Assembly: GCA_963748345.1 (NCBI GenBank)
Contig: CAVVIS010000006.1
Coordinates: 158,908-222,907, forward strand
Source of the DNA: Blastocatellia bacterium
GTDB lineage: Bacteria; Acidobacteriota; Blastocatellia; Pyrinomonadales; Pyrinomonadaceae
Reading direction: 5' to 3'
Length of the DNA stretch: 64,000 nucleotides
Shown here: one piece after another, positions 34,592 through 60,436 of the stretch
How positions within the stretch are numbered: the stretch's first letter is position 1
Layout: every line of letters starts with the position of its first letter
Made by a program: the position numbers and the translations under genes
Notes under the pieces: model-generated
The model's input: only the letters and a program-made list of their open reading frames with translations
Told to the model about the DNA's origin: nothing
Databases searched by the model: none

Positions 34592-34606
34592 ATGTTTCAG
34601 CGATTT

Positions 34607-34705
34607 ACTCTGCGCAACCTCTGCGTCCGCTGCGACTCTGCGGTGAGGACAGTCGGTTATACATTCACCGCCGAGACGCAGAGCGCGCTGAGGTAACGCA
34701 GAGAG
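34607..34705. repeat. Family D element, copy D3, between the cNMP/Fe-S gene and the FHA-cytochrome gene
   Basis: TACTCTGCGCAACCTCTGCGTCCGCTGCGACTCTGCGGTGAGG ... CACCGCCGAGACGCAGAGCGCGCTGAGGTAACGCAGAGAG. Confidence 0.8.
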
Positions 34706-34737
34706 CGAACGGCAGACGTCTGAGCGAACCATTTCCA

Positions 34738-36464: not shown

Positions 36465-39293
36465 TTGAAATTAAGAACAATACTTGTCTGCGTCCTGGCG
36501 CTGCAAATGGCTGTCGCTGGTTTGGCTTCATTCGTCGCCAGTGCGCAAGAGGAACCAGCCGTTAACGAGAGCTACGCTAAGGCTTCGGCCCACGCCCGCG
36601 CTTACGTGATTTCGCGGGACGCGCTCGGTAAGATCGTTTGCCGCGACGCGACGGCCAGCGAGCTGAGCCAACTCAATCAGCGCGACGGCGAAAGCCAGGT
36701 GATTTACGAAGGCGCGCCCAACCTCAATCTTGCTCGCGGAAAAAACAACGTCGTCCCCAACGCTCTGCTGCAAACTCTCCAGCCTTCCGCCGGCTTGCGG
36801 ATCGTTTTGCACGCCACCGCGAATCTGAACCAATCACAAAACACGGCCGCCAGGAATGCGTTCATCGTCGCTGCCAACCGCTGGGAGTCAATCGTCTCGA
36901 CGCCGATCACCGTTGTGCTCGACGTGGATTTCGGTACCACGTTTTTCGGTCAGCCGTATTCCGGTCCCAATGTTCTGGGCGCCACCGCGACCGCGGATGA
37001 CACGCGCCTTTATGCGGACGTGCGTGCGCGGCTGCTCGCGAACTCGCCCACTTCGATGGAGGCGCAGTACTACAACGCTTTGCCCGCTGCCGCCGCCGGC
37101 ATGCCCACAGAACGTAACAACCTGCCGAGCAAGTCGCTGACTGTCCGGCTAAATATGCCAAACTCGCGCGCGCTTGGTCTCGTACCGGACATTACAAATC
37201 CCGATGCGCTTGGTCTCGGCGAGACCGACGCGGGCATCGGGTTCAATTCCGCTTTTCCTTTTGATTTCGATCCGACCAACGGCGTCGATTCAAACAAGAT
37301 CGACTTTGATTCCGTGGCTACGCATGAGATTGGCCACGCGCTCGGTTTCAGCTCCGAGTCGGGCGGAGCGGTTTACGCGCCGGTCTCGGCGTGGGACATG
37401 TTCCGCTTTCGCTCGGGCGCCGCGAGTCTCGGCACTTTTGGCGTCGCACCGCGCATCATGACCGCGGGCGGCACGCAGGTTTATTTCAACGGACAAAACA
37501 ACGGCTTCGGAACGGAGCTGCGCCTCTCAACCGGTGGACCATTTGGCGACTCCGGCGACGGCGAACAGTCGAGCCATTGGAAGGACGACAACCAGACAGG
37601 GCAGTACATCGGCATCATGGATCCGAACATCAGCGACGGCGTGCACAACTCGATCACCACGAACGACGCCAGCGCGCTCGATTCGTTTGGTTATTCGATC
37701 GGCAATCCTGTGCCGGCGCCGCCACCGCCAGGACCCGCGCCGCCGTCGACGCCGCCCAACGACAACTTCAACAATGCGATCGTCGTTGCTGACGTGGCCG
37801 GAGCGACCACCGGCAACAGCACCGGCGCGACGAAAGAGGGAGGAGAGCCCGCCATGCTGCCCGGCAACAGCGGTGGACTCGGCGGTAGATCGATTTGGTA
37901 TCGCTGGACTTCACCGGTAAACGGCACGGCAACTTTTGAAACCCAGGGCAGCGGCTACGACACGTTACTGGCCGTCTCGACAGGCTCCAGCGTCAACAGT
38001 CTCACGCGCATAAACCAAAATGACGATCTCGCGCCCGGAGAGACTACGGCCAGTCGCGTTACGTTTTCGGTCAACGCCGGCGTGACTTATCAACTTGCGG
38101 TGGACGGTTACAACAACGGCGACGGTACCGAGTTTGGCATCATTCAACTGAACTGGTCCGCTACCGGCACGGCGCCGCCAACACCGAGTCCGAGTCCCAC
38201 GCCGACTCCGCCAATACCGGCGACGGTTACCGGTCGAGTGCTTGAGAACGGACCTGGCGGCTCGGCGCCGATGGCGGGAGTGCTGGTTGGTCTTTTCCAA
38301 AATGGCGTGGCCCTGCAGCAGATGACGACTGGAGCAGATGGCCGTTGGTCCTTTAACGCGGCGTTCATCGGACAGGCTTACGACGTCCCCTTTGTCCGCT
38401 CAGGCTATTCGTTCACGCCGCCCAGTTTGATCTTTCCGGTTAACCAGGCGTTGCAGGACATGGGCGACGTCGTTGCCGTCAAGGGCAATTCGATTGACGC
38501 GTCCGATTTCTTTGTGAGCAAACATTACGACGATTTTCTTGGTCGCGTCGCTGATCCATCCGGGCTCGCGTTTTGGGTGAACAACATCGAGAGTTGCGGC
38601 TTCAGCATGCCGTGCCGCGAGGTCAAGCGCATCGACACCAGCGCCGCCTTCTTTCTCTCGATCGAGTTTCAGGAAACTGGTTACCTGGTCTATCGCGCGT
38701 ACAAGGCCGCTTACGGCGATGCTTTCGATCCGACGATTGCCACGCCGGGGTCGCCGCAGGGTTATCCGGTGCCGATCATCCGGCGCGCGGAGTTCATCGC
38801 AGACACGCCGCTGATTAGCCAGAACGTGCAGGTCGGCGTTGGAAATTGGCAGGCGACACTTGAAGCCAACAAGGTGGCGTTCATGCTCGCGTTCGTGGAC
38901 CGCGCGCGCTTTACGACGGACTATCCGGCATCGATGACGGCTGATCAGTTTGTTACGAAACTGGATCAGCGGGCGGGCGGTGTGCTTTCCGCGTCTGAAA
39001 AGGCCGCGCTCCTGGCGGTGCTGGGCGCGACGCCGGCAGATAATGCGAAGCGTGCGCAAGTGTTGCGCGCGGTGGCGGAGGATTCCGAGTTGAACGCGCA
39101 CGAGCTCAATCGGGCGTTTGTGCTGATGCAGTATTTTGGTTACCTGCGGCGCGATGCGAACACGGGGCAGGACACGAACTTCGGCGGTTACAAGTTTTGG
39201 CTGGACAAACTAAACGAGTTCAACGGCGACTTCCGCGCCGCTGAAATGGTGAAGTCGTTCCTGGTTTCGGGCGAATACCGCGGGCGGTTTTGA
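36465..39293 (+). CDS. Secreted zinc-metalloprotease-like protein with Pro-rich linkers and C-terminal DUF4214-like domain
   Basis: TTG start with GGAG upstream. Signal peptide MKLRTILVCVLALQMAVAGLASFVASA. HExxH site VATHEIGHALGF. The C-terminal DFFVSKHYDDFLGRVADPSGLAFWV is typical of DUF4214. Confidence 0.7.
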   Translation: MKLRTILVCVLALQMAVAGLASFVASAQEEPAVNESYAKASAHARAYVISRDALGKIVCRDATASELSQLNQRDGESQVIYEGAPNLNLARGKNNVVPNALLQTLQPSAGLRIVLHATANLNQSQNTAARNAFIVAANRWESIVSTPITVVLDVDFGTTFFGQPYSGPNVLGATATADDTRLYADVRARLLANSPTSMEAQYYNALPAAAAGMPTERNNLPSKSLTVRLNMPNSRALGLVPDITNPDALGLGETDAGIGFNSAFPFDFDPTNGVDSNKIDFDSVATHEIGHALGFSSESGGAVYAPVSAWDMFRFRSGAASLGTFGVAPRIMTAGGTQVYFNGQNNGFGTELRLSTGGPFGDSGDGEQSSHWKDDNQTGQYIGIMDPNISDGVHNSITTNDASALDSFGYSIGNPVPAPPPPGPAPPSTPPNDNFNNAIVVADVAGATTGNSTGATKEGGEPAMLPGNSGGLGGRSIWYRWTSPVNGTATFETQGSGYDTLLAVSTGSSVNSLTRINQNDDLAPGETTASRVTFSVNAGVTYQLAVDGYNNGDGTEFGIIQLNWSATGTAPPTPSPSPTPTPPIPATVTGRVLENGPGGSAPMAGVLVGLFQNGVALQQMTTGADGRWSFNAAFIGQAYDVPFVRSGYSFTPPSLIFPVNQALQDMGDVVAVKGNSIDASDFFVSKHYDDFLGRVADPSGLAFWVNNIESCGFSMPCREVKRIDTSAAFFLSIEFQETGYLVYRAYKAAYGDAFDPTIATPGSPQGYPVPIIRRAEFIADTPLISQNVQVGVGNWQATLEANKVAFMLAFVDRARFTTDYPASMTADQFVTKLDQRAGGVLSASEKAALLAVLGATPADNAKRAQVLRAVAEDSELNAHELNRAFVLMQYFGYLRRDANTGQDTNFGGYKFWLDKLNEFNGDFRAAEMVKSFLVSGEYRGRF

Positions 39294-39294
39294 G

Positions 39295-39612
39295 GGCAGG
39301 CGACGGGGGTCAGGGGCCAGGGTTCAGAATACAGAAGACAGAATACAGGAGACAGAAGTCAGGAGCGCCAAAGGCGCGAGATGTAATAGCCTGGGCAACG
39401 CCCCAGGAGAGAAAACAGTGAATATTGATTGAGCGCTGAAGGCGCGAAATACTCCATTCCCTGGGGTGAATTTCGCGCCTTCAGCGCTCAATGAATTTTC
39501 TTGGTTGGTTACCTGGGGCGTTGCCCCAGGCTATTACATCTCGCGCCTTTGGCGCTCCTGACTTCTGTCTCCTGTATTCTGTCTCCTGCCTCTGCCTCCT
39601 GACCTCCGCCCC
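39295..39612. repeat. Approximately 320-bp multilayer palindrome
   Basis: The layers read GGGGTCAGGGGCCAGG.., CAGAATACAGAAGACAGAATACAGGAGACAGAAGTCAGGAG, AGCGCCAAAGGCGCGAGATGTAATAGCCTGGGCAACGCCCCAGG and TTGAGCGCTGAAGGCGCGAAAT. Each is mirrored on the right side in reverse order. Confidence 0.85.
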
Positions 39613-39618
39613 CCACTT

Positions 39619-40191
39619 TCACCCCGCCGGCTTATGGCAGGGAAGGCAATCGTTTGATCCGGGCACCTTTCCTTTGAGCGCCGGCCGCGCCGCGATTGCT
39701 TTGTCGTGACAGACGTTGCAGTTCATGTGGTAGGCCACTTCGTTTGTCAGTTTCGTTGGCGTCGTCTTACCGGTATATGTGATCGCCGGCATCTCCGCGC
39801 TGTCGTCGCCCGCCTGTAGATGACAAGTCCGGCAAGCTTTCACCGGCTTCGCGTCCGCGGCCTCGAGCACTTTCGCGGTCAACACAACATCTCGTTCAGA
39901 AGTTTTCAACGGAGCGACAAGTGCGGACGCCGGCTGATCGGTGTGATGACATTCGGCGCAGCCCAGGACCGTCTTCCCGTCAGCGCTGTAAGGTTTCGTG
40001 GCGTGGTTCTCGTGGTTGAAAGGCACTTCGCCGTATTTGTCTGACTGACTGTCTTTGCCGAGGACAACCTCTTTCGGCTGCGTCTTGCTCTCTTTGGGAA
40101 TGTCCTGCGTCGCCGTAAAGGCGGAACGGCCGCCGACGACAACTACCGCCAGACATCCCAACACCGCAATCAAAAACCAGAGTTTTCTCAT
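39619..40191 (-). CDS. Tetraheme cytochrome c3-family protein
   Basis: The start is at MRKLWFLIAVLGCLAVVVVG. The VPFNHENH motif is followed by four CxxCH sites (CAECH, CRTCH, CNVCH, CLPCH). Confidence 0.8.
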   Translation of the reverse strand: MRKLWFLIAVLGCLAVVVVGGRSAFTATQDIPKESKTQPKEVVLGKDSQSDKYGEVPFNHENHATKPYSADGKTVLGCAECHHTDQPASALVAPLKTSERDVVLTAKVLEAADAKPVKACRTCHLQAGDDSAEMPAITYTGKTTPTKLTNEVAYHMNCNVCHDKAIAARPALKGKVPGSNDCLPCHKPAG

Positions 40192-40354
40192 CGAATAATA
40201 ACCTCTCGCAGCAGCTAAATCTCGACAGAAATTTTCGGGAAGACTTGCCATGGAACCAGCAGGGGAGGGCACCTGCAATATTAGTTAGCGAGCGGGGACG
40301 TGTCAAACAATTTGCTGGAACAATCCGCACCGGGTCCACGGGCCCGCGCGAGTT

Positions 40355-40450
40355 CGTTTAGAGGCGGGCACCGCCCGCCGGTTCAAGTCAGACGACCAAG
40401 TATTCTCTTCCACTCCTCCGGCGCCGGCGGGCGGTGCCCGCCTCTAAACG
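40355..40450. repeat. Family C element, copy C2
   Basis: CGTTTAGAGGCGGGCACCGCCCGCCGG ... CCGGCGGGCGGTGCCCGCCTCTAAACG, between the tetraheme and nonaheme cytochrome genes. Confidence 0.85.
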
Positions 40451-40470
40451 AAACCGGTCAAGTTGCATTC

Positions 40471-41358
40471 TCACCGCAACGGCATTTTGAAACTCGCGGC
40501 GGTGTGACAGCGGCGGCAGTCGTCAAATGCCAAGTCGCCGCCAAAGGAGCGCCGGCCGTTGTGACAACTGAGGCAGGTCTTGCCGCGCGTTGTCGGAAAG
40601 TGTTCGATGGCCGCCGGCGAGCTGACTTGCCGAGACTGCGGCGCGCCGGCGGTCAGCGTGTGGCAATCGTTGCAGCCGAGTCTTTGCGCCGCGCCATGTT
40701 TGGCGTGACTGAACGCGAAGCGAAAAGCGCGCGCGTTGGTACTTGGGCGAGCGTAAGGTTTCTGATCGTGGCAAACTCCGCACGATGCGAGGTCACGACC
40801 TGACTGACTTTTGCTGCTCGGCGTGTGGCAGGTGTAACACTGGTTGTGGGCCGCGATGCTGGTGGGAATCGCGAGCGCCGCCGCGCCTCGACCGCTGCGG
40901 CCGTGGCAGGATGAACAGCCATTGGGCGGTCGCGCCGCGCCGCTCATGTGCTGCGCGTGATCGAATTTGACGTTGAAACTTTCATTGAAGCGCGCGGGAA
41001 AAGATTTCAGCGGTGGGTTGGAGCTGTTGACGTCCGCATGGCAGATGACGCACATCGGCACGTTCGGCGTTATAAACTGCGCGAGATGGCAGCCGGTGCA
41101 AGCCTTGTGTCCCGGAAATCGCGGCGTCGCTGAATTGTCGCTGCGCTGGTGACAGGCCGTGCAGGCAAGCGAGGCATGACGCTGGCTGTTGTGTTTGAAA
41201 GTTGCGTAGTCGAGGTCGGGACCCTGAAGCAACGGCGGCGCGGCGAACAACGCCAACTCTCTGTGCAGCCTTTGTGTGCTCTGTGTCTCTGTAGTGGAAG
41301 CTTTTGAAGTAAGACTCACCACAGAGGCACAGAGGACACAGAGACAGCACAGAGACAT
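40471..41358 (-). CDS. Nonaheme c-type cytochrome built from three c7-type triheme units
   Basis: Nine CxxCH sites fall in three repeats, each preceded by an F.H..H-type motif (FKHNSQRH, FDHAQH, FSHAKH). The only plausible signal peptide ([16 protein letters not shown]) is encoded by repeat D-prime. Confidence 0.8.
   Translation of the reverse strand: MSLCCLCVLCASVVSLTSKASTTETQSTQRLHRELALFAAPPLLQGPDLDYATFKHNSQRHASLACTACHQRSDNSATPRFPGHKACTGCHLAQFITPNVPMCVICHADVNSSNPPLKSFPARFNESFNVKFDHAQHMSGAARPPNGCSSCHGRSGRGAAALAIPTSIAAHNQCYTCHTPSSKSQSGRDLASCGVCHDQKPYARPSTNARAFRFAFSHAKHGAAQRLGCNDCHTLTAGAPQSRQVSSPAAIEHFPTTRGKTCLSCHNGRRSFGGDLAFDDCRRCHTAASFKMPLR
41257..41356. repeat. Family D-prime hairpin element (TG/CA variant of family D)
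   Basis: CTCTCTGTGCAGCCTTTGTGTGCTCTGTGTCTCTGTAGTGG ... CACCACAGAGGCACAGAGGACACAGAGACAGCACAGAGAC. It overlaps the 5' end of the nonaheme cytochrome ORF. Confidence 0.85.
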
Positions 41359-41426
41359 GGGCCAGGCCGTAGAAAGTCGGCCGACCCCAAGCCTAAAACG
41401 CCTCAAGATTTTTGACGCTGCCAGCT

Positions 41427-42617
41427 TCACTTTACGTCCTTGCGCTTCAGTGCCTCTCGACCGGCGATCAAATAGTGACTTGCCGGCGGGTCGCGCCGGC
41501 CCACGTCCGAGGTGTGACAATAGCTGCACGTGAAGTCGCGATTCTTGTCGATCGCTTCCAACTCTCCGCTGACGTCCAAACGCAGTCCATCCTTGTTATG
41601 ACATTCGGTGCACGCCGTGATCGGCACGTCCGGTTTCAGCCCCCGCACCGTCGAGGACTTTGTAATGTTGATATGACAGGTGGTGCACTCGGCGACGTGT
41701 TGTGCGCGGGCGTGGCGAAACTTGAGCGAAATCCTGAGCTCCGGCAAGCCGACGGGAACCGTGGGTGTCGACCTCGGATTCACGGACGTCACCCCGCTAA
41801 CGTTCGTGGTAAGCGCCTGCGACTTGTGACAGCCGCCGCAATTTTCGCCGGTGGGCTGCTCGGATTTCCAGTGGCAGTTAAAGCAGGAAGCATGACTCGT
41901 CGGCACTGCTCTGAAAGCTGCCGCGTCCGGAACAAACGAATCGACCCACCCTGCAATCGGTGCAACTGGCGCAGCGGTTCGCGGACCATGGCAGATTTCG
42001 CAGTTGTTGTACTGCTTCGTTTTGTCATCGGCCACATTGGCGTGCGCGAACGAAGCGCGCTGGAATAGCGAACGCGTTTCCTCTCGCAAGGGAAGTAGCA
42101 GCCGCGCGATCACGTCCTGATGTTTGTCGTGGGGAAACTCGATAAGAAATTCACGCCGACCGGCCGGATTGCGAAACGCGAAACGCGCATCGTCGCGCGG
42201 CGAAACTTTCGCGTGGCAAACAGAGCAAATCGGCGGCTTCGCTCCTTTGAAAAACTGCGGCCGGTGGCAACTGACACAGGCATCATGGCCGGGGTAGTCA
42301 GCAACGTCAGGAAAGTCTCGAACTTTTTTCCAGTTGTCAGTCGGCAGTTTGTGGCAGGTGTTGCAGGCGCCCTGATGTTTTTGGGTGGCGTGGGAAAATC
42401 GCGAATAGTCGATCCTTGCCACTGCTGAACTCGGCCGCGGCGACGGTCGCCGCACGCGTCGCTTTTGTGCCTGTGCCGTGTTGTGAAGATCAAAGATAGC
42501 TAAGCACAGGAAACATGCAGAAAGGGCCACCAATACAAATCGGTGACCGCGATTTGCTGCAAAACCCCCGCTCGCTTGCCGTAGCTTCGTCATCGAGTCG
42601 AGTCTTCTGCCCCGCAT
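41427..42617 (-). CDS. Nonaheme c-type cytochrome built from three c7-type triheme units
   Basis: Nine CxxCH sites (CNTCH, CVSCH, CSVCH, CEICH, CFNCH, CGGCH, CTTCH, CTECH, CSYCH). The unit leaders are FSHATQKH, FPHDKH and FRHARAQH. The signal anchor is FVLVALSACFLCLAIF. The true start may be the second Met at 42593, because 42619 begins repeat A6. Confidence 0.8.
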   Translation of the reverse strand: MRGRRLDSMTKLRQASGGFAANRGHRFVLVALSACFLCLAIFDLHNTAQAQKRRVRRPSPRPSSAVARIDYSRFSHATQKHQGACNTCHKLPTDNWKKVRDFPDVADYPGHDACVSCHRPQFFKGAKPPICSVCHAKVSPRDDARFAFRNPAGRREFLIEFPHDKHQDVIARLLLPLREETRSLFQRASFAHANVADDKTKQYNNCEICHGPRTAAPVAPIAGWVDSFVPDAAAFRAVPTSHASCFNCHWKSEQPTGENCGGCHKSQALTTNVSGVTSVNPRSTPTVPVGLPELRISLKFRHARAQHVAECTTCHINITKSSTVRGLKPDVPITACTECHNKDGLRLDVSGELEAIDKNRDFTCSYCHTSDVGRRDPPASHYLIAGREALKRKDVK

Positions 42618-42618
42618 C

Positions 42619-42754
42619 AGAGCGGGGGCAAGCCCACCTTCCTAACCCTGAGCTGATCAAAGTCGAGTTGTGATCTCACGGAGAAAGCCTTTCAATCTAC
42701 ATGCAAACAAGCAAGGCCGGGAGTCTCAAGGTCAGGAAGGCTTGCCCCCGCTCT
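42619..42754. repeat. Family A element, copy A6
   Basis: AGAGCGGGGGCAAGCCCACCTTCCTAACC ... GGTCAGGAAGGCTTGCCCCCGCTCT. The right arm has a small deletion. The core is close to A2. Confidence 0.85.
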
Positions 42755-42773
42755 TCGTCAAACGGCCGCGCAG

Positions 42774-43604
42774 TTAGCGGTCGTTGCCTCGCATCACATC
42801 GCAGCTCGGCAACGGTGTTTCCACTGCCACACACTTCACGTTCTTGTCCTGTTGATTCGAGATCAGGAAAGGCTTCTCGGTCGCGAGATCGCCGGGTTTT
42901 ACTGCCACGTTGCAGTTCCAGATCGCCGTCACTGCTTCAAATTCTGTCGCTACGAGGTTGGACAACATGTAGGCTCCCGGCTCCAGGTCGGTGAAATACG
43001 CCGTGCCGTAACGGTCCGTCATTACCGACACCACCTTCGCGCCCGATGTCGTTTCCGCCTCTCGGACCAGCATGTCAATTTCGGCACTCTGCTTCTTGTA
43101 AAAACCGTCGCGCGCTTCGGCAGGCAAATAATTCGTTAGCCACTTGCGCGCCAGGTCTCGACTCTTCAGCTCTTTCTCGCCCGCGGCCAGCGCGGCTAAA
43201 AACTCGGGCGGCGCGTCTGGTCCTTCGAGGTCCTTCTCTTCGATCTCGCGACAATAGACTGACTCGCAATCGTTCTGGCGCAGCCAATTCGCAAGCTGCG
43301 GGCTCGCGCCGATGCCGGCGTAGTAGCAGTCGCGTGTGATCAGGGGCTGACGCTGAACCTTTTCGACCAGCGCCTTATTCTGTTCGAGCGATCCTTTGAT
43401 GAGAAAGAACCTTTTGCGAGCGAGTTTCCGGGTGGCGCTTCCGGACTTGAACTGCGCGCGCAGCCGAACGACTCCACGCGGGCCCGAGGTTGAATTGGAA
43501 GTTTGCGCAGCCGAGAAGAAAGCTGAACCGGCGACGATCGACAGCAGCAGGGCAATCACGCGGCTCCGGCGTTTTAGGAAGTTAGTCAAGGTTTGAGTAA
43601 TCAA
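42774..43604 (-). CDS. Hypothetical secreted protein
   Basis: Signal peptide RVIALLLSIVAGSAFFSAAQ. The C-terminal TDRYGTAYFTDLEPGAYML resembles a carboxypeptidase-regulatory-like beta sandwich. Same strand as the cytochrome genes and immediately upstream of them. Confidence 0.55.
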   Translation of the reverse strand: MITQTLTNFLKRRSRVIALLLSIVAGSAFFSAAQTSNSTSGPRGVVRLRAQFKSGSATRKLARKRFFLIKGSLEQNKALVEKVQRQPLITRDCYYAGIGASPQLANWLRQNDCESVYCREIEEKDLEGPDAPPEFLAALAAGEKELKSRDLARKWLTNYLPAEARDGFYKKQSAEIDMLVREAETTSGAKVVSVMTDRYGTAYFTDLEPGAYMLSNLVATEFEAVTAIWNCNVAVKPGDLATEKPFLISNQQDKNVKCVAVETPLPSCDVMRGNDR

Positions 43605-43613
43605 AGTATCGGT

Positions 43614-45778
43614 CTACAAATTCGGGCTGCGCGGAAACTTCAGGAAGGGCAGCCGCACACCGCGCACAAAAACCTGGTCTGAACGAATCGCCGGGGCGGG
43701 CGAGAAACCGTTGCCGCCGCCCGCGCCGATGAGATCGTCCTGGTCCACGCCGTCGCCGCTGATGCCAATCGCGCCAACCAGCACGCCGTTTTTGTAAATC
43801 GGGACGCTGCCGGGAAAAATCTGAATGCCGTTGGGAAGATTGGGAATTGTGCTGCAGGGCACGTTTGCGCCGCCGATCGCCGCCAGCAGGTTTGTCTTGA
43901 TGAGATCCAATTGCAGGCCAACGTTGAAAGGACTCCAATCGACGAGTGACGTGCTGAAGGGACCGGCAGCAGTGTTGTTAATTCCGTCCGGGAAAAATGG
44001 TCGATGCAGAAAGCCGCCCGCGCGATCGGTGAAAGCCACTGAACCGTCCAGCCGGATGCCGTCAGCCGCAGCACGACTAACGTAACTGCCGAACCCGGCA
44101 GTGTTGAGAAGCGTCGCGGCGTTGGAGTTTGAGAGAAAAGCTGCGGTCCTTGCCTTTTGCACTGAAACATCGAACCCAAAAACCGGCGCGTCGAGTTGTC
44201 GAAAAACGCCAAGCACTTTTCCGTCCGCATCGACGACCGCGATCGTTACGCGCGCGTTGCTGCCGAGTGGCTGGCGAATCGCCGCCCGTGTGATGTTTGC
44301 TTGTTGGGCCGCATGCGCAATGATGGTTTGCACGTCGGCGGCGGTTAAAGCGTTTGGTCCAGCCGGAGCCGCGCCCGCGACAAATGGAAAGAATCGCGTG
44401 TCAACTTCGCCTCCAATTCCGCCGACATTCGCGGGAACAAACGCCGAGGTCTGCGCGCTGCGAATTGGAAACGCGACCGGCACCACGCCGGGCAAACTGC
44501 CAAACGGAATCGTTGCGGGAGCGGGCGGACTGGAAACGTTTGCATAGGGCAAGCGAATGCCGTCGACCAGAATGTTGTCGCGCGCGTATCAAGGCCGTCG
44601 GCTCGAAGCCGCGCACGGCAGAGGCCGCAATCAGCTCTTCAAAAGGCTGATCCGAATCTCGTGGATCGCGATCGACGGTGTAGTTGCCGTCGCCTTCGAT
44701 GCCGACGCCGCCGACCGCCATGCCGTCTTTGTAAATCGGCAGGCCACCGGGATCGGCTGACAGGCCGAGGGGCAGCGCGGGCTGCTTGATGTCAGAGCAG
44801 GGAAGAGACGAAAACTGCACGCCGTACAAAGGGCCGCCGGAACGAAACTCGATGCCCGGCGGAAAGTGTTCCTGGATGATGAAGCCGGCCGTGCGCGTCG
44901 TGAATGCGTTGCCTGTGGTGCTGAAAAGTGAACCGGTTCCGGCTTTGGAAATCGCGGCGAAAGTCGCCGGCGCCACAGTTGCCTTCGAGTCCCTGACCGA
45001 GCGTGCCGACGCTGCGGATCGTTGTCGTCGCCGGTGCGCCAGTCATGACAAAAACGCCGAGCACGTTCGCTTCGCGGTCAGTTACCGAGACCGTCACGGC
45101 GCGATTAAGCCCCACCGCCGCCGAAACCGCCTGGCTGATGATCGTCTGTACGTCGCCCGTCGTCAGATTGCCCGCCGTTGCGCCGGGAGCGTTTGGAATA
45201 GCCGAGCCCGGCGTGGGCACCGCGCCCGCGTCGTCCGCGAGTCCGCCGCCGACATGGCCCATCGCCACCCGCACGCGGTTGCTGGCAGCGCCGCGATAAC
45301 TCAAGCCGACCAACACGTCGCCGAGGTCGGTCAGGTCGTTGCTCAGTCGGACGACGACGGCCGTGGCCCAGGGTTGTTCGGGAACGCTGCCGATGTACTC
45401 GACCGGCAACTGATAAACGTGGTGCGCGCCGTCTTCCGCGGTAACCGTGATTGAGCTGACGCTGTCGCCCGCCTGAAGCGTGAGGTTCATTGCGAACAGC
45501 ATGACGCGAGTCTTATTGTCTGCGCCAAATGCGACCGGGACAGTTGGCGCGAAGGGCTCGCGATGTCGCGTGACCGATTCAAACGAAAGTGCCCGCGTGG
45601 AATCGTGGTGGCTGATGAGAATTGGCGCCGCGGATTGGGCCATGGTCCCCGGAAACTGGACGGGCATCGCGCCGACGAAAAGTGTGCCCACGCATAACGC
45701 AAGCAGCATTCGGAAGCGGTGATGTGAACCTTCAACCATCGCGCAGTTTCGCGGAATGAGATTTCGATAGCCGCGCAC
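43614..45778 (-). CDS. Secreted protein with two GlcG/HbpS-like (DUF336) putative heme-binding domains; two frame interruptions; start uncertain
   Basis: Pieces 44792..45778, 44401..44976 and 43614..44552. The signature appears twice: GGLPIYKDGMAVGGVGIEGDG and GSVPIYKNGVLVGAIGISGDGVDQDD. Each copy is preceded by LT..DVQTII..A. Confidence 0.65.
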
Positions 45779-45800
45779 AATGTATCACAAAGGCTCGCTA

Positions 45801-45900
45801 AAGTTTCGAGTTTCAAGTTTCAGGTTTCAAGTTTCCAGTGGTCTCTCGTGCGGCTTATTGTTGTTTTGTCTTTGAACTTGAAGCTTGAAACTCGAAACTT
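45801..45900. repeat. GTTTCAAG-word palindrome in the divergent region between the DUF336-like gene and the outer-membrane barrel gene
   Basis: AAGTTTCGAGTTTCAAGTTTCAGGTTTCAAGTTTCC ... CTTTGAACTTGAAGCTTGAAACTCGAAACTT. Confidence 0.8.
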
Positions 45901-45960
45901 CTTCTTGGCCTCCGTGTCACTCGTATGCTACAAGGCAAACGAGCGTTCCCGGATTCTTTC

Positions 45961-48078
45961 ATGATAAAGACTCTACTTCTGCTTGGCGCTGTCGTGCTGG
46001 CCCATGGACTCGGCTCTGCGGTTTTGGGCCAGGGTTCGGGAAGCATCAAAGGCACCGTGCGCGTAGCTTCAGGAGCGCCAGTCGCCAATGTGGCAGTCAT
46101 CGCCACTAATCAAGTCACAGGAAAATGGAAACGCGCGCGCACGGACGCCGACGGCGTGTATGCGATCAAGTTGACCGCGGGTGCGTACCGGCTGCGAGTC
46201 GCGGCCCCGCACGTCGCCAAGTTTGACAAAGACAAGAACTACGGCGAGTTCACGATCGCCCGAGGCGAAGCGCTCGAGAACGTGATTGTCGAAGCCGGCA
46301 AGGAAACGCTCGTTGACGTTCCGCTCGATCAGGTCGAACTCAAAGAGATACCAAAACAAGCGGGCGACAAACCAACCGGACACGCCGGCAGCGATACGGT
46401 TCCTTCCCAGCCACAAACAGACCCCACGCGACGTGAGACGCGCGATCGCTGGCGCATCGGCTTTCCTGAGTATGAACGCTACGGCGATCGTGGTTCGCGC
46501 GGCCGCGACATTCCTTTCACGCGCGGCCGCTGGTGGGACCCCTACAACCAGAGCGTTTTAAAAGGCGACTACCCCATCAAGGGCAACAAGTTGTTCATGA
46601 TTCTTTCGGCGGTTAGCACCACCACCGTCGAACAGCGCCGCGCGCCGACGCCGTCCGGCGTCAGCAATGACGAACCCGGCAGCGCTGAATTTTTCGGACA
46701 ACCCGAACAGCTCGCCGCCAACCAGACGCTTCAGCTCAGCTTTGAACTTTTCCACGGCGATTCCACTTTCAAACCCCGCGATTGGGCCATCAAGCTTTCG
46801 CCGACGTTCAGCATTCCCAACTACCTGAACGCCCGCGAGCTTGGCGTTGTAAACATCGACGTCCGACGCGGCGCCAACCGCACCGACACGCACGTTTCGT
46901 TTGAGGAAGCGTTTGGCGAAGTGAAGCTGTGGGACGTGAACGCAAACTACGATTTCGTTTCCCTGCGCGCCGGGATTCAGCCTTTCGTCTCTGACTTCCG
47001 CGGTTTCATTTTTTCCGACAACAATCTCGGTTTACGCTTTTTCGGCGCCGCGGACAACAATCGGGTGCAGTTTAATGCCGCTTACTTTTCGATGCTGGAG
47101 AAGGATACGAATAGCGGGCTCAATCGTTTTGACACGCGCCATCAAAACGTTTACGTCGCCAACGTCTTCCGGCAGGATTTCATTCGCAAGGGTTTTACAA
47201 TTCAGGGCAGCCTGCATTACAACGATGACCGCCGCGGGATTGAATATGACCGAAACGGGTTCCTGGTCCGTCCGGCTTTGATTGGCGACGTGCGCGAGCA
47301 TGCGATCAAGGTGGGCTACCTCGGAATCGCCGGCGACGGTCATCTGGGAAAACTCAATCTGAGCCACGCGTACTACTTTGCGTTTGGCCGCGACGATCAC
47401 AATCCGATCGCCGGGCGCAGCGTGAAAGTGAGATCAAACATGGCGGCGGTTGAGGCGTCAGTCGATCACGACTACCTGCGTTTCAAGGGTTCATTCTTCT
47501 GGGCGCAGGGCGACGCCAATCCGACGGACGACCGGGCAACAGGCTTCGACGCGATCTTTGACGATCCGAATTTCGTTGGCGGGCAGTTTTCTTTTTGGAA
47601 TCGCAACGGCATACGGCTGACGCAGACCGGCGTCGGGTTGGTCCAGCCGAACAGCCTTCTGCCGAGTCTGCGCAGCAGCAAGATTCAGGGGCAGGCGAAC
47701 TTCGTCAATCCCGGCATCTTTATTTACAACGCCGGAGTCGATGTCGAGCTGACGCAGCGCATCAAGACGGTTTTCAATATTAACTATCTGCGATTCCATC
47801 GCACGGAGCCGTTGGAGTATGTGCTGTTCCAAAATCGAATTCGCCATGACATCGGTTGGGACTACAGCGTCGGCGTCGCGTATCGACCGTTTCTGATCAA
47901 CAACGTGACGATGACCTTCGGCGCGGCGACGCTGCAGACGGGTCGCGGCTTTCGCGACATCTACACGGACCGCTCGCGCAACTGCCCGCCGAACGTCGGC
48001 GACTTTTGCGAACCGGATGTGATCAATCCACGCAAGCCGCTGTATTCGCTGTTTGCGCAGCTAAAGCTGGTATTTTGA
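45961..48078 (+). CDS. Outer-membrane beta-barrel protein with N-terminal carboxypeptidase-regulatory-like domain
   Basis: Signal peptide MIKTLLLLGAVVLAHGLGSAVLG. The N-terminal domain reads IKGTVRVASGAPVANVAVIA...TDADGVYAIKL. The rest shows long alternating beta-strand-like sequence ending in LFAQLKLVF (terminal aromatic residue). Confidence 0.7.
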   Translation: MIKTLLLLGAVVLAHGLGSAVLGQGSGSIKGTVRVASGAPVANVAVIATNQVTGKWKRARTDADGVYAIKLTAGAYRLRVAAPHVAKFDKDKNYGEFTIARGEALENVIVEAGKETLVDVPLDQVELKEIPKQAGDKPTGHAGSDTVPSQPQTDPTRRETRDRWRIGFPEYERYGDRGSRGRDIPFTRGRWWDPYNQSVLKGDYPIKGNKLFMILSAVSTTTVEQRRAPTPSGVSNDEPGSAEFFGQPEQLAANQTLQLSFELFHGDSTFKPRDWAIKLSPTFSIPNYLNARELGVVNIDVRRGANRTDTHVSFEEAFGEVKLWDVNANYDFVSLRAGIQPFVSDFRGFIFSDNNLGLRFFGAADNNRVQFNAAYFSMLEKDTNSGLNRFDTRHQNVYVANVFRQDFIRKGFTIQGSLHYNDDRRGIEYDRNGFLVRPALIGDVREHAIKVGYLGIAGDGHLGKLNLSHAYYFAFGRDDHNPIAGRSVKVRSNMAAVEASVDHDYLRFKGSFFWAQGDANPTDDRATGFDAIFDDPNFVGGQFSFWNRNGIRLTQTGVGLVQPNSLLPSLRSSKIQGQANFVNPGIFIYNAGVDVELTQRIKTVFNINYLRFHRTEPLEYVLFQNRIRHDIGWDYSVGVAYRPFLINNVTMTFGAATLQTGRGFRDIYTDRSRNCPPNVGDFCEPDVINPRKPLYSLFAQLKLVF

Positions 48079-48132
48079 GTTTCTTCAAGGAGGGACCGCT
48101 TTGTTCACCGCTTGGTTACTAACTTATCTGAT

Positions 48133-48173
48133 CCACCACAGAGGCACAGAGGACACAAAGGTGGCACAGAGAC
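48133..48173. repeat. D-prime-type arm, left inverted repeat flanking the GxxExxY gene
   Basis: CCACCACAGAGGCACAGAGGACACAAAGGTGGCACAGAGAC. Confidence 0.8.
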
Positions 48174-48194
48174 AAACAATGCGGAGGGCAAGAG

Positions 48195-48584
48195 GTGAAT
48201 TCCCAAATAAATCAGTTGTCTCACGAGGTTATCGGCGCGGCGATCGAAGTTCATAGACGACTCGGGCCGGGACTACTGGAATCAGCATACAGAAAGTGTT
48301 TGTGTCGAGAACTATTTGTGAGAGGGATAGGCTTCGAGGATGAGCATCCATTGCCGCTAGAGTACAAAGGAATTCGCCTTGAGTGTGGCTACAGAGTGGA
48401 TATCCTCGTCCGTGGTCTGTTAGTGGTGGAAGTGAAGTCCGTTGAAGCTCTGGCTCCGATTCATGATGCGCAACTACTGACCTATCTTCGAGTCGGCGGG
48501 TGGCGACTGGGATTGTTGATTAATTTCAATGTCGAGGTTCTCAAGAATGGTATCCACAGAAAAATCCTTGGCTATGAAGGCTAG
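48195..48584 (+). CDS. GxxExxY protein (PD-(D/E)XK nuclease-like fold family)
   Basis: 129 aa reading ...[34 protein letters not shown]...[32 protein letters not shown]. This carries the GxxExxY motif (GLLESAY). Confidence 0.8.
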
Positions 48585-48623
48585 CCTCTGTGCGACCTCT
48601 GTGTTCTCTGTGTCTCTGTGGTG
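48585..48623. repeat. D-prime-type arm, right inverted repeat flanking the GxxExxY gene
   Basis: CCTCTGTGCGACCTCTGTGTTCTCTGTGTCTCTGTGGTG. It is the near reverse complement of 48133..48173 and starts 1 nt after the GxxExxY stop. Confidence 0.8.
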
Positions 48624-48644
48624 ATTTTTCGGCTCGTTGAAGTC

Positions 48645-51600
48645 ATGACTAGAATCGGTCTTACTCTAATGGTTGTGCTGCTGCTGTTCGGCCTCGCGCT
48701 GGGTTTGACGGCTTCTTCTAAGACGGAAGAAAAAACGGCCAGTAGTATCTCCTTGTCAGCACCAAGGTTGCCCGTTGCAACTGCAAGTCAGACAGCATCA
48801 ACCCCACGCCTCGAAGGTTGTGTCACCTGTCACGGACTGATTGAGCCGATGCACAAATACGGCCCCACGGAAACGCTCGACAAACTAAACGACGGCAAGG
48901 ACGCGGTCGGACTGACGTGCACTGACTGCCACGGCGGCAACCCGGTGCCGCGCAAGACGAGCGACGATCCGAAATCAATCCAACAAGTCAAAGACGAAGC
49001 CCACGTGCGCGCGAAGTTTCCGGCGGAGTGGCGCCGCGACGGCAAGTACACCGCCGCGAATCCCGAGCGCACCGCCACGCTCCTCGCGCGCGAGAGTTGG
49101 GAGTTTGTCCGCTTCATCAATCCCGGTGATTTGCGCGTCGCTGCGCAGACGTGCGGTGTCGGCGGCTGCCACGAACTCGAATCGAAAAATGTCGCGAGCA
49201 GCATGATGACGCACGGCGCGATGCTCTGGGGCGCGGCGTTCTACAACAACGGCGGCTTCCCGCTGAAGGACGCGCGTTTCGGCGAAAGCTACAGCGAGGA
49301 CGGCGCGCCGCAGACTCTCATTCAAAATCCCAAACCGACGAACGAAGACCAACGCATGAAGGGTCTGCTCGAGTTTCTCGATCCGATCCCGCGTTGGGAA
49401 ATTTCGCAGCCCGGCAACGTGCTGCGCGTTTTCGAACGCGGCGGGAAGCGGCGTTTGGAAGTCGGCTTGCCGGACAAAGAAGAAGAGCCGGGCAAGCCGG
49501 ACAAGGGACTCAGTCCGCGCGGTTTTGGTTCCGCCAACCGCACCGATCCGATTTTCCTCGGTTTGCAGAAAACGCGCCTGCACGACCCAACCCTGAATTT
49601 TTTGGGCACGAACGATCATCCGGGCGACTATCGCTCGTCAGGCTGCAGCGCGTGCCACGTAATTTATGCAAACGATCGCGAGCCGGCGCACTCTGCTTTC
49701 TACGGTGCGTCCGGAAACCTCGGTCGCTCGGAAACGGCCGACACGAACATTCCGAAAAATGAGTCGGGCCATCCGATCAAGCATCAGTTCACCAGCCAGA
49801 TTCCGACCTCGCAGTGCATGACCTGTCACATGCATCCCGGCACGAACATGGTGGCGACCTACATGGGGATGACCTGGTGGGACAACGAGAGCGACGGCGA
49901 CAAGTTGTATCCGAAGCAGCAACACGAGCCCTCGCAAACGGAGGAACAGCAGAAGCTGAATCGCAATCCTGAAGGCGCCAGCCTGCGCGGTCTCTGGTCC
50001 GAGCTCGAGTTCCTCGCGGGCACGGGCACGCCTGAGTTCAATTCGCAGTTGAAGAACACGCAGTTCGGCGACTTTCACGGTCACGGCTGGCTGTTTCGCA
50101 AAGTTTTCAAGCGCGACCGCAAAGGAAACCTGCTCGACGCGCAGAACAATCTGGTGCCGGCAACCGATCCTGACAAATTCAAGAAGGCTGTTCACCTGAA
50201 CGACATTCATCTCGACCGCGGGATGCATTGCGTCGATTGTCATTTTCGTCAGGACGCGCACGGCGACGGCAATCTCTACAACGAACCACGCGCGGCGATT
50301 GAGATCACCTGCGAGGATTGTCACGGCTCGATTCGCAAGCGCGCGAACTTATTCACCTCCGGCCCAGCCGCCGCTGTTGCAACCGGCACGGCGGCCGAGC
50401 GACGGAAGTCACAAAATCTGCCCGCAGCCGGACAGGACCTGAACCGCATTCGCGTGCGTGACGAAACGGGCGCGAAGGTTCCGCTCTTCCGCAGGCTAAC
50501 GCGCGACCAGAAGAAGAAAGACGAAAGCGGCAACGACATTGAGCTGAAGTCGGGCGACGTGATTCAAAACTCGATGGTCGTGCCCGGACGCTGGTGGCGC
50601 GTGCCGCAAACTATGGGCACGATCACCCCGGGCAGTCGCGATTACAACGAGAAGTCGCGCTACTCAAAAACGATCCGCAAAGACAACGTTACCTGGGGCG
50701 ACGTCCCCGCAGGCGAACAGGAACTGGCCCACCGCGACGAGGAGATGACTTGCGTCGCTTGCCACTCGTCTTGGGTGACGAGCTGTTTTGGTTGTCACCT
50801 GTCGATGCAGGCGAATCGCAAGATGCCAAACCGGCACAACGAAGGCGGCGACTCGCGCAACTTCACGCAGTACAACTTTCAGGTTTTGCGCGACGATATT
50901 TTCATGCTCGGGCGCGACGGGACGGTGACCGGAAATCGCGTGGCTCCGGTGCGTTCTTCGTCAGCCGTGCTCGTCAGCTCGCAAAATCAAAACCGCGAAT
51001 GGATCTATTCGCAGCAACAGACGACTTCGGCAGAAGGGTTCGCGGGCCAGGCATTCAACACGCACGTGCCGCACACCGTGCGCTCGACCGAAACGAAGGG
51101 CTGCACCGATTGTCACGTGTCGGCGAAGAACGACAACAACGCCTGGTTGGCCCAACTGCTTTTGCAGGGAACGAACTTTGTGAACTTTATGGGCCGTTAC
51201 GTTTATGTGGCGGCGGATGATGCGTTGGAAGCTGTAGTCGCGACCGAGGCCACCGAGCCGCAAGCAGTCTTCGGCAGTTCACTTCACAAGATCGCTTACC
51301 CGGACAACTACGGAAAATTTGTGAAAGACGGCAGCGAGTTGAAGACAGCGTACGAACACGTCGGCAATCCGCGCGTGCTGCAGGTGCAGTTGCGCGGCGA
51401 ATATGCCTACGTGGCGGCTGGTGAAGGCGGCCTGCGCGTTTACGACGTTGCGCAGATCGATCAGAAGGGATTTTCCGAACGAATTGTCACCGCGCCCGTG
51501 TCGCACTTTGGCCAGAAGTTTTGGGTCAAGACGAAATACGCCACCGCGGTTGCCGCGCCGACGACGCTCGCTGTCGATCCGGCCCGCTGGCGAATGAAGA

Positions 51601-52608
51601 CAGGCGGCACGATGATCGATCCGGAGAGCGCGGCCAAACTCACCGGCGAGGCGCGCAAGCAGTTACTAAATGAAGAGCAGCCCATCCATCCGCTTTACGC
51701 TCATCTTTATGTCGTCGACAAGCATGAAGGACTGATTTTGGTGAACGCCGCGACGCTGTTGGACGGCGATCCGCTTGAATAACTATCTGAAGCGCGCGCT
51801 CGACTCGGCAAAGTTTCCGGGCGGCGCCTTCAATCCGGCGGGCGCGCTGAATGATGCGAACAATGTCGCTATCGCTGGCCACTACGCCTACATTACGACA
51901 GCGCGAGGGCTGGTCGTCGTTGACATCGATGACCCGCTCAGTCCTCGAATCGCCCAGCAGCTTGAGCTGCCCAATCCGCGCGCGATCGCGATTCAGTTTC
52001 GCTACGGCTTCGTCGTGGACGATGATGGACTGAAGGTGTTGGACTTGAGCACGCCGGGCGCGCCGAAGTTGGTGCCGGGCGCTGTCGTCCCGCTCGCCGA
52101 TGCGCACGATGTCTATGTGGCGCGAACTTACGCCTACGTCGCCAACGGCAAAGAGGGAATCGCAATCATTGATGTGGAGCAGCCGGAAAAACCGCGGCTG
52201 GACCAGACGTTCAATGCCGGTGGACGGCTGAACGATGCGCACCAGGTGAAAGTGGCGATGACGAATGCGAGCCTGTTTGGCTATGTGGCTGACGGCCGGA
52301 ACGGCTTGCGAATTCTGCAACTGACGTCGCCGGAGACGATGCCGGAATACGCCGGCTTCAGTCCGCGACCGGCGCCGGTGTTGATCGCCAGTTTCAAAAC
52401 GAAAGGCGAAGCGCTTGCGATTTCGAAGCCACTGGATCGCGATCGCGCGGTCGATGAAAGCGGGAATCAGGTTTCGGTGTTTGGCCGGCGCGGCGCTCGC
52501 CCGTTCAACTTTGAAGAAATGATGCGCCTGCTGCGGACGAATGACGGCAAGGGCGATTGGTTCACGGTGAGTGATGCGCCGTCGACACAACCGTCAGGCG
52601 GAAGATAG
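48645..52608 (+). CDS. Giant multiheme c-type cytochrome fused to LVIVD-repeat beta-propeller; one frame interruption at about 51775-51781
   Basis: There are nine CxxCH sites (CVTCH, CTDCH, CSACH, CMTCH, CVDCH, CEDCH, CVACH, CFGCH, CTDCH) plus one CGVGGCH. LVIVD-type repeats follow: [58 protein letters not shown]. The two ORFs (48618..51782 and 51775..52608) join if one T of a TT run is removed. Confidence 0.75.
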
Positions 52609-52610
52609 TC

Positions 52611-52789
52611 AGCCGCGGATTTTCGCGGATGAACGCGGATCAGAACCCAACACCGTCAACCGTTTAGAGGCGGGCATCGCCCGCCGGTTCGCCGAAAACC
52701 GGTATTGCGTGTAATCGGCGGGCGGTGCCCGCCTCTAAACGGGCGTAGTCATTTTTCTGATCCGCGTTCGTGCGCGTGAATCCGCGGCT
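52611..52789. repeat. Composite: family C copy C3 (52661..52743) nested in a CCGCGGAT-word outer palindrome
   Basis: The outer arms are AGCCGCGGATTTTCGCGGATGAACGCGGATCAGAA / TTCTGATCCGCGTTCGTGCGCGTGAATCCGCGGCT. The inner element is CGTTTAGAGGCGGGCATCGCCCGCCGG ... GGCGGGCGGTGCCCGCCTCTAAACGGG. Confidence 0.85.
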
Positions 52790-53668: not shown

Positions 53669-53740
53669 AGATTAACGCGGATAGGACGGATTTAAGTTCA
53701 ACCTAAGTTCAGATCCGCCTTTATCCGTGGTCGTCTGTGG
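53665..53740. repeat. Palindromic element of the CGCGGATA/TATCCG word type
   Basis: CCACAGATTAACGCGGATAGGACGGAT ... ATCCGCCTTTATCCGTGGTCGTCTGTGG, between the disrupted ORF and the mutS 3' end. Confidence 0.7.
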
Positions 53741-53750
53741 CGAATATTTC

Positions 53751-58829: not shown

Positions 58830-59013
58830 TTATTTGAAAACCTGACGCTGCCTCGCATGAGAGGTTTCCCTTCGGGGTACTGTGTGTTTGCCGTTGCGCG
58901 CCAAACCGGCACGAAATGAAAAACATACCAGGGCACCAGTGTGCTTGTCAGAACCGGGAGCGTTAGCGACCGGCTAATTGGTTCCACGGCAGGATCGCAG
59001 ATTAAGCAAAGTA

Positions 59014-59292: not shown

Positions 59293-59300
59293 GTCAAGTT

Positions 59301-60380: not shown

Positions 60381-60436
60381 TGGCCACTGCGAATTGGAAA
60401 ATTTGCTGCCCGAGACCGAGTTAGATTCCGACCGTC

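Follow-up and report, generated by a model that had tools for sequence, protein, structure and literature searches.

Judged by its described parts, the ptdABCDEFG operon is the closest reported system to the locus analysed here, a divergently organised set of multiheme cytochromes and an outer-membrane barrel on a 64,000-nucleotide (nt) stretch of a Blastocatellia genome (contig CAVVIS010000006.1; the whole stretch is called the window below). The operon has been reported once, from marine oxygen-deficient-zone bacteria, and is uncharacterised; it was proposed to encode a porin-cytochrome complex, and this putative complex was assigned to marine Alphaproteobacteria, Gammaproteobacteria, Nitrospirales and Planctomycetes (bioRxiv 10.1101/2023.11.21.568154). 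Its parts are a flavoprotein, a protein with cyclic-nucleotide (cNMP) and [4Fe-4S] domains, the ferric-reductase-like PtdF, the periplasmic decaheme PtdG, the tetraheme PtdD and the porin PtdB, which adjoins PtdA, a pentaheme terminal cytochrome of the NrfA family with a beta-sandwich; no HbpS-like protein is listed (bioRxiv 10.1101/2023.11.21.568154). A cluster of an FHA-nonaheme cytochrome, a five-transmembrane protein and a [4Fe-4S] protein has been noted as novel in Ferrigenium straubiae, where inward flow from Fe(II) oxidases was proposed (bioRxiv 10.64898/2026.01.22.701106). From peat Acidobacteriota and Verrucomicrobiota four clusters of porins and multiheme cytochromes, EET1-EET4, have been described, of which EET1 comprises an MtrB-like porin, a cytochrome and a separate NHL (DUF5128) beta-propeller, and EET2 comprises MtrC, DmsE and a porin (bioRxiv 10.64898/2026.05.27.727921).

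What is new in the window, within this barely known kind of system, is a terminal module combined with a rearranged and fused inner-membrane module. Counterparts of PtdD, PtdE and PtdG, a candidate for PtdF and a barrel can be recognised in the window and its relatives, and in relatives only also a counterpart of PtdC. The window encodes a cNMP/iron-sulfur (FeS) protein and, beside its membrane domain, a PtdG-like multiheme cytochrome (34738-36186); it encodes neither the flavoprotein nor a pentaheme NrfA-family terminal cytochrome. In place of PtdA it has a fusion of a decaheme domain to an LVIVD propeller of ∼1330 amino acids (aa), the cNMP/FeS and membrane proteins are fused, the c554-like tetraheme gives way to two nonahemes and a c3-type tetraheme, and a tandem HbpS-like secreted protein is added. 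The inner-membrane trio of Ferrigenium straubiae is alike down to the fusion of FHA to a multiheme domain, which is otherwise unreported, but its description mentions no barrel, decaheme-propeller or HbpS-like module. EET1-EET4 share phyla with the present system, but their descriptions mention neither an HbpS-like protein nor an LVIVD fusion nor an AlgE-like barrel, and we rejected them as the same system because the parts lists differ. A literature search found no paper linking LVIVD, HbpS-like proteins and multihemes.

The system is like the porin-cytochrome conduits in logic but built from different parts. With MtrCAB and Pcc (OmaB/OmbB/OmcB) it shares three co-encoded tiers, namely periplasmic multihemes, an outer-membrane barrel and a large terminal multiheme. 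Those conduits are fed by quinol through CymA, ImcH or CbcL, whereas the present system appears, from its domain content, to receive its electrons from FeS/NAD(P)H in the cytoplasm by way of a membrane domain of di-heme-b type; its terminal cytochrome carries a beta-propeller and evolves very slowly, and its barrel has ∼18 strands and resembles AlgE. On balance we think it somewhat more likely than not that the locus encodes an electron-export chain which does without quinones, terminates at the outer membrane and is gated by way of its cNMP-binding and FHA domains. Export is favoured by the co-inheritance of the parts, their arrangement in single operons elsewhere, barrel fusions, invariant membrane histidines and flavin domains in relatives, as well as by the confident barrel model, the invariant heme sites of the large cytochrome and the independent proposal of a porin-cytochrome complex for the related ptd operon (bioRxiv 10.1101/2023.11.21.568154).

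Co-inheritance was examined by mapping open reading frames (ORFs) with blastp in 80 loci from a genome scan with a barrel alignment and in 80 loci from a metagenome scan with distant barrels (31-39% identical to the window's); single loci are cited by L numbers. The large cytochrome lies directly 3′ of the barrel in all loci of both sets that are long enough, so the linkage of barrel and cytochromes across relatives holds over 160 loci, and with it the proposal of the first-pass annotation that multihemes and barrel are one functional unit. The 80 genome loci cover six phylum-level groups, and carriers include Terriglobia, Bryobacteraceae, Acidiferrales, Verrucomicrobiia, Binatus and Planctomycetota, with barrels 45-55% and large cytochromes 52-56% identical to those of the window; the closest protein matches (81-92% identical) come from metagenome-assembled genomes of Pyrinomonadaceae (Acidobacteriota, Blastocatellia). 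Protein searches over a collection clustered at 90% gave, among the best 8000 scored candidates, more than 7300 significant matches each for barrel and large cytochrome, and the barrel family comprises 2079 representative clusters (50% identity) at E <=0.001 and 487 at E <=1e-30. The labels on distant relatives of the barrel read Nevskia sp. and Marinicella sp., always with the annotation 'hypothetical protein'.

Throughout the distant branch (L087-L166) one collinear operon is common to all 80 loci. In L147 it runs from a ∼850-aa protein with Pyr_redox_2, two cNMP and 2x4Fe-4S domains through a ∼290-aa membrane protein and a cytochrome with FHA domain, transmembrane helix and decaheme domain to the HbpS-like protein, the barrel, the decaheme-propeller (43-47% identical to the window's across this branch) and a c554-like tetraheme. 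All parts also stand on one strand in L068 and L075, and in most of the genome-scan loci the HbpS-like gene is divergently transcribed beside the barrel. Of the first 86 loci 56 have this gene next to the barrel, as do 72 of the 80 distant ones, a placement by which the HbpS-like protein is taken to be a core partner of barrel and large cytochrome.

The true extent of the locus is 32114-52608, that is, it takes in an inner-membrane module upstream (32114-36186). The entry protein matches cNMP_binding (E 9.9e-18) and several Fer4 dicluster families in Pfam; these domains stand N-terminal to the membrane domain, without a signal peptide, and are cytoplasmic. Two helices of the membrane domain each carry an H-x13-H pair, and since all four histidines are invariant in fused and split homologs, the domain would be expected to hold two stacked b hemes. 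Split homologs consist of a cNMP/FeS protein with an added N-terminal Pyr_redox_2 FAD/NAD(P)H domain and a ∼290-aa membrane protein, the latter giving a weak cytochrome b561 (Ni_hydr_CYTB) match in L147. Terriglobia relatives have a Pyr_redox_2 gene adjacent to the cluster, and among Terriglobia and Acidiferrales a Pyr_redox_2/Pyr_redox_dim flavoprotein adjoins the HbpS-like gene (L083 4109-5515; L085 3618-5030).

NOX, ferric reductases and Fre-MsrQ export electrons in a way that bypasses the quinone pool. The present module resembles them in NAD(P)H, flavin, two presumed membrane hemes on paired histidines in two helices, and an acceptor on the outside, but an FeS domain stands between flavin and hemes, the acceptor is a chain of c-type cytochromes, and Pfam Ferric_reduct gave no match to the membrane domain of the window.

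The second protein of the module, the FHA-anchored heptaheme cytochrome (likely start Met at 34738; the mechanical ORF begins at 34501), matches FHA (PF00498, E 3.1e-8) and c3/c7 heme families in Pfam, and related loci encode homologs with 7 or 10 hemes. In L147 the genes 3′ of the operon (14965-16902) encode a phosphatase of PP2C type and a double-FHA protein, homologs of which occur in 14-17 of the 80 loci L087-L166; as a match to the FHA domain on the inner-membrane cytochrome, such neighbours hint at Ser/Thr-phosphorylation control. Gating by signals is suggested by the cNMP-binding and FHA domains together with these PP2C and double-FHA genes of relatives.

The outer-membrane barrel was modelled with AlphaFold2 from a 35-sequence alignment and compared with the PDB by Foldseek. 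The model bears out an outer-membrane barrel, as the first-pass annotation had proposed, noting a KLVF C-terminus (the protein does end in ...AQLKLVF), but one of ∼18 strands that is AlgE-like, not MtrB-like. Confidence is high (predicted local distance difference test, pLDDT, >90 over residues 220-680), and an N-terminal beta-sandwich precedes the barrel. AlgE is the top match (E 9e-15, template-modelling score 0.62-0.70 on target), followed by other 16- to 18-strand channels including chitoporin and OccD/K. The likeness to AlgE is structural only: both have 18 strands, but identity is ∼10%, the conserved motifs are others, the N-terminal domain is CarboxypepD_reg or a tetraheme, the genomic context is cytochromes and not polysaccharide synthesis, and Alginate_exp (PF13372) gave no match to the barrel domain at E <=5. 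Searches of Pfam (E <=5), NCBIfam and the PDB (sequence and profile) found no family for the barrel domain, and an NCBIfam match to NikL (18.7 bits, cut-off 100) was rejected as spurious. Two elements of the protein stand out, a linker that is conserved yet unstructured in the model (DRWRIG...WWDPYNQSVLKGDYPI; motif DRWR...DPYNQN.LKGDYPI) and a highly conserved 70-residue insert between strands 13/14 (residues 528-597), confidently modelled as non-strand; the insert is acidic (SGDxDPxDxxAxGFDxIxDNP). In some Blastocatellia a tetraheme c3 domain replaces CarboxypepD_reg at the periplasmic N-terminus of the barrel, and this fused tetraheme aligns collinearly, with all four heme motifs, with the free tetraheme of the window (E 2e-4 to 5e-4); by this gene-fusion argument the tetraheme may dock to the barrel on its periplasmic side.

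The large cytochrome had been read as a ∼1300-aa fusion of a multiheme cytochrome to an LVIVD propeller. Its intact homologs are indeed single proteins of ∼1320 aa, but in the window the gene lies in two frames. The rejoined protein consists of a signal peptide, a ∼790-aa heme domain with nine CxxCH and one CX4CH, and a ∼470-aa LVIVD beta-propeller; we count it as a decaheme because the CX4CH site (residue 179) is invariant and is CxxCH in some homologs. Across phyla ∼200 columns are invariant, including the ten heme sites and 11 non-motif histidines, which on the alignment would be enough for bis-His ligation of every heme. Pfam holds no family for the heme domain, with only generic c3/c7/c554 motifs matched and PF22113 below threshold, and no match to the NrfA family rose above threshold. 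The surface exposure claimed at first pass was not borne out: the large cytochrome has no lipobox, a CTERM-like anchor occurs in a subset of homologs only, and no curated model reaches threshold. The C-termini in question, in ∼20 homologs (among them L019, L021, L024, L029, L035-L039, L044, L056, L063 and L068), run from a low-complexity linker through GG and a hydrophobic stretch of 15-20 residues to an RRLRR-type tail, which resembles a CTERM sorting signal. The window protein is without such an extension, no NCBIfam CTERM model reaches threshold on these tails, and we do not use them as evidence of exposure.

Between the two membranes the minus strand supplies the remaining cytochromes. Nonaheme B matches Cytochrome_C7 (E 1.3e-18) and TIGR04257 (E 4.7e-11) and is 54-75% conserved in Pyrinomonadaceae, where the nonahemes and the 276-aa secreted protein diverge faster than barrel and large cytochrome; the 276-aa protein is lineage-specific, found only in Pyrinomonadaceae and Chloracidobacterium-labelled loci. 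The HbpS-like protein passes the PF03928 threshold both as a window fragment (52 bits) and as the intact L001 homolog (69 bits, 3 stretches), and its relatives in the PDB are EfgA, the C-terminal domain of PduO and an extracellular heme-binding protein.

In the chain that we propose, cytoplasmic reducing power would enter at the cNMP-binding 2x[4Fe-4S] protein; in most other lineages the donor would be NAD(P)H, by way of a fused or adjacent FAD/NAD(P)H oxidoreductase domain that the window locus does not have. Electrons would cross the inner membrane through the four-His domain and its two presumed b hemes, bypassing the quinone pool, and pass to the inner-membrane-anchored heptaheme with its cytoplasmic FHA end. 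The periplasmic nonaheme, nonaheme and tetraheme cytochromes would relay them to an outer-membrane module made up of the 18-stranded AlgE-like barrel, the decaheme/LVIVD propeller and the secreted tandem HbpS-like protein, and this module would reduce an acceptor outside the cell or one admitted through the barrel, with the flux gated by second-messenger and Ser/Thr-phosphorylation signals. Some 29 hemes separate the terminal protein from the inner-membrane anchor, ∼22 of them periplasmic beyond the anchored heptaheme, a number that would fit a periplasm-spanning relay better than a soluble enzyme. What the analysis establishes is the parts with their domains and heme sites, their conservation, synteny and gene fusions, and the fold of the barrel; we infer the binding of b hemes, the direction of flow, a physical complex at the outer membrane and the regulation.

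Several results weigh against an export chain of this kind. No flavoprotein or other FAD/NAD(P)H donor is encoded in the window, and two core genes are frameshifted there. Barrel and decaheme keep 43-56% identity across phyla, and in Pyrinomonadaceae the pair is as conserved as the MutS encoded next door (in L012, MutS 74%, barrel 75% and cytochrome 78% identical), which would be more like an enzyme than a surface conduit; by contrast, Geobacter multiheme cytochromes are reported to be fast-evolving (PMC12977616). Nothing places the decaheme outside the cell, and an AlphaFold2 model of its 792-aa heme domain from a 50-sequence alignment reached a mean pLDDT of only 39.9 and gave no heme geometry. 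An 18-strand barrel with a large insert is, on the model, probably too narrow to sheathe a multiheme as MtrB does. The carriers, finally, belong mostly to aerobic heterotroph lineages that are not known to respire metals.

The slow evolution of the terminal pair keeps alive another reading, which we regard as possible though not probable, in which the decaheme-propeller would be a multiheme oxidoreductase of the periplasm whose substrate is some small soluble oxidant, such as a species of nitrogen, sulfur, selenium or reactive oxygen. It would lie under a dedicated AlgE-like substrate channel, draw on the same NAD(P)H/FeS/b-heme/cytochrome feed and serve as a detoxification or respiratory reductase, not in extracellular electron transfer. 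The ∼200 invariant columns are enzyme-like, the nearest folds of the barrel (AlgE, chitoporin, OccD/K) are substrate-specific channels, and profile comparison of the large cytochrome with the PDB, although it returned only short heme-motif matches, found weak collinear ones to octaheme nitrite reductase and NrfA (E 0.003); there is also a partial match to ExtM (E 2e-19, 69 bits against an NCBIfam cut-off of 800), and the terminal cytochrome of the related Ptd operon belongs to the NrfA family (bioRxiv 10.1101/2023.11.21.568154). A catalase gene adjoins the cluster in L083 (14592-15620), just 3′ of the large cytochrome. Such an enzyme is, however, hard to square with a large cytochrome in which no CxxCK-type catalytic motif was found and whose invariant histidines suffice for six-coordinate hemes throughout; its heme domain has no family assignment, and a spanning relay with a barrel-tethered tetraheme would be superfluous for a soluble enzyme.

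A separate question is whether the copy in the window still works. Frame changes near 44983 and 44581 divide the HbpS-like gene among three frames, and the large cytochrome changes frame near 51776; none of these sites has a long homopolymer, and homopolymer slippage was therefore rejected. If all three frameshifts were real, neither the HbpS-like protein nor the decaheme would be made and the locus would be in the course of being lost from this genome, which we consider unlikely. Past the breaks the segments remain 84-90% identical to intact homologs (697 aa for the HbpS-like protein of L001, ∼1320 aa for large cytochromes) and contain no in-frame stops, while an ABC transporter gene (ABC_membrane + ABC_tran; window 15752-17702, minus strand) that is unrelated to the cytochrome locus is likewise split over at least three frames. 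Because of this unrelated split gene and the identity kept past the breaks, these frame changes suggest indels in sequence or assembly, or lesions of very recent date, rather than old decay; L002 shows comparable splits in its large cytochrome and in MutS.

The direction of flow could also be the reverse of export, with the outer-membrane module oxidising extracellular or barrel-admitted Fe(II), Mn(II) or reduced humics and passing electrons to the inner membrane, though we hold this to be improbable. Cyc2 is a fused cytochrome-porin, which the tetraheme-barrel fusions recall, the acidic conserved insert of the barrel could suit cations, and an FHA-multiheme/transmembrane/[4Fe-4S] trio is present in the Fe(II) oxidiser Ferrigenium, where inward flow was proposed (bioRxiv 10.64898/2026.01.22.701106). 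The cytoplasmic end of the present system, however, is an FeS/FAD-NAD(P)H unit with no quinone site or evident energy input, so that uphill reduction of NAD(P)+ from Fe(II) would be implausible. Di-heme membrane domains of this kind, as in NOX and MsrQ, normally export electrons.

Least of all do we expect a canonical Mtr/Pcc-type conduit, with a periplasmic multiheme inside the barrel contacting a surface cytochrome: the three-tier logic is alike and nonaheme A passes the Pfam threshold for MtrC/MtrF domain II/IV, but the barrel has ∼18 strands against 26 in MtrB, MtrB is not among its top 50 structural matches, its only NCBIfam match is the spurious NikL one with nothing relevant to TIGR03509 (MtrB/PioB) at E <=0.01, the MtrA/DmsE model TIGR03508 gives only a 30-bit partial match, in the FHA-heptaheme (cut-off 192), and the large cytochrome has no lipobox. 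Of the Mtr/Pcc-like logic proposed at first pass, a path from cytoplasm to outer membrane is plausible once the upstream module is included, but an insulated wire of the MtrA-in-MtrB type is unlikely, given the ∼18-strand AlgE-like model and the absence of MtrB from those 50 matches. The statement that no component resembles an Mtr or Pcc ortholog stands at the level of whole proteins, no Mtr/DmsE threshold being reached and the Geobacter Pcc/Ext models, a set that has none for OmbB, matching below threshold only (ExtM 69 bits vs 800, GSU2203 22 bits vs 325), but is slightly too strong at the domain level because nonaheme A passes PF22113. That domain occurs in it once, with 9 hemes, no lipobox and no flanking beta domains, and neither nonaheme A nor the large cytochrome shows the lipoprotein signal and two PF22113 pentaheme domains alternating with beta-barrel domains that mark MtrC/OmcA.

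The layout of the locus is given in Table 1. ORF calling and translation confirmed the gene order on both strands as first described, and the earlier estimate of at least 38 CxxCH sites including the FHA-cytochrome proved exact, at 7+4+9+9+9 = 38 in five ORFs. By comparison there is 1 such site in the 29,372 residues of six-frame ORFs of at least 100 aa elsewhere in the window, an enrichment far beyond chance.

Table 1. Features of the cytochrome-barrel locus, in window coordinates
Feature	Position	Strand	Description
Inner-membrane electron-entry protein, 825 aa	32114..34591	+	2 cNMP-binding domains, 2x[4Fe-4S] ferredoxin domain, C-terminal multi-pass membrane domain
FHA-anchored heptaheme cytochrome	34738..36186	+	cytoplasmic FHA, one transmembrane helix, periplasmic domain with 7 CxxCH
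Secreted 942-aa protein	36465..39293	+	HEIGHALG zinc-protease motif and DUF4214; between FHA-cytochrome and tetraheme
Tetraheme c3-like cytochrome	40278-39619	-	4 CxxCH; N-terminal hydrophobic anchor or signal
Nonaheme cytochrome B, periplasmic	41529-40471	-	c7/c3-type triheme modules
Nonaheme cytochrome A, periplasmic	42617-41427	-	PF22113 (MtrC/MtrF domain II/IV) 43.2 bits, cut-off 30
Secreted hypothetical protein, 276 aa	43604-42774	-	no Pfam family
HbpS/GlcG-like secreted protein	45778-43614	-	N-terminal domain and two HbpS/GlcG (DUF336, PF03928)-like domains
Divergent intergenic region	45779..45924		between minus- and plus-strand units
Outer-membrane barrel protein, 717 aa	45925-48078	+	signal peptide, CarboxypepD_reg beta-sandwich, linker, barrel, C-terminal F
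GxxExxY / PD-(D/E)XK ORF	48195-48584	+	TIGR04256 E 1.7e-41, 141 bits vs 35; PDDEXK_3 137 bits
Terminal cytochrome, ∼1329 aa rejoined	48618..52608	+	ORF 48618-51782 (heme) and ORF 51775-52608 (LVIVD, PF08309 E 2.5e-20)

Two ORFs within the locus are set apart from the system. The GxxExxY insertion between barrel and large cytochrome was correctly recognised at first pass (TIGR04256; PDDEXK_3), and its distribution marks it as an incidental, facultative insertion, since only six related loci, all of Pyrinomonadaceae, have it and L002 has a PIN-domain gene at the same spot. The gap itself (window 48079-48617; L002 12398-12964, where a small family-less ORF stands 5′ of the PIN gene) seems to attract small selfish genes into a gene pair that is otherwise tight. 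The 942-aa secreted protein is probably a passenger and not a core part; in L005, L007 and L008 a relative of it separates the barrel from the HbpS-like gene, and other loci have none.

Promoter and terminator scans over 39000-53800 stayed at background level, with no promoter-like match above background in the divergent intergenic region. A sigma-70-like 10/12 match (TTGACA-17-TAATAT, window 40306-40277, minus strand) just 5′ of the tetraheme c3 gene could be a promoter of its own, within a scan that is at background as a whole. Downstream, ORF 52788-53342 (184 aa) was considered as a remnant of the SIR2_2 gene seated there in L001 and rejected, no similarity being found. Further genes of the window, at 21873-26852 and 58941-63320, encode a GAF histidine kinase with a sigma-54 activator, and Poly_export/SLBB and Wzz/GNVR tyrosine-kinase-type proteins of exopolysaccharide export.

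A broader form of the export reading, which we advance tentatively and think rather unlikely to hold in full, would make this locus the soil-lineage form of a widespread, essentially unstudied NOX-like class: an NAD(P)H-driven, quinone-independent wire, gated by cNMP and phospho-Thr, to an outer-membrane complex of decaheme-propeller, barrel and HbpS-like protein, through which aerobic heterotrophs (Pyrinomonadaceae, Terriglobia, Verrucomicrobiota, Nevskia, Marinicella) would carry out reductions outside the cell in a regulated way. If so, candidate reactions would be the reduction of Fe(III), Mn(IV) or humics, or the formation of extracellular superoxide; in those groups no enzyme is known for any of these reactions.

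The new terminal module is tied here to the inner-membrane module of the Ptd operon and of Ferrigenium, so that the three can be tested as one family. Some of the most abundant bacteria of soil are among the carriers, and the core proteins are all annotated as 'hypothetical' or only generically. Should the system prove to export electrons, many aerobic bacteria of soil and water would have a regulated route, independent of the quinone pool, to extracellular or envelope-level acceptors, which would matter for the cycling of iron, manganese and humics and for the production of reactive oxygen outside the cell.

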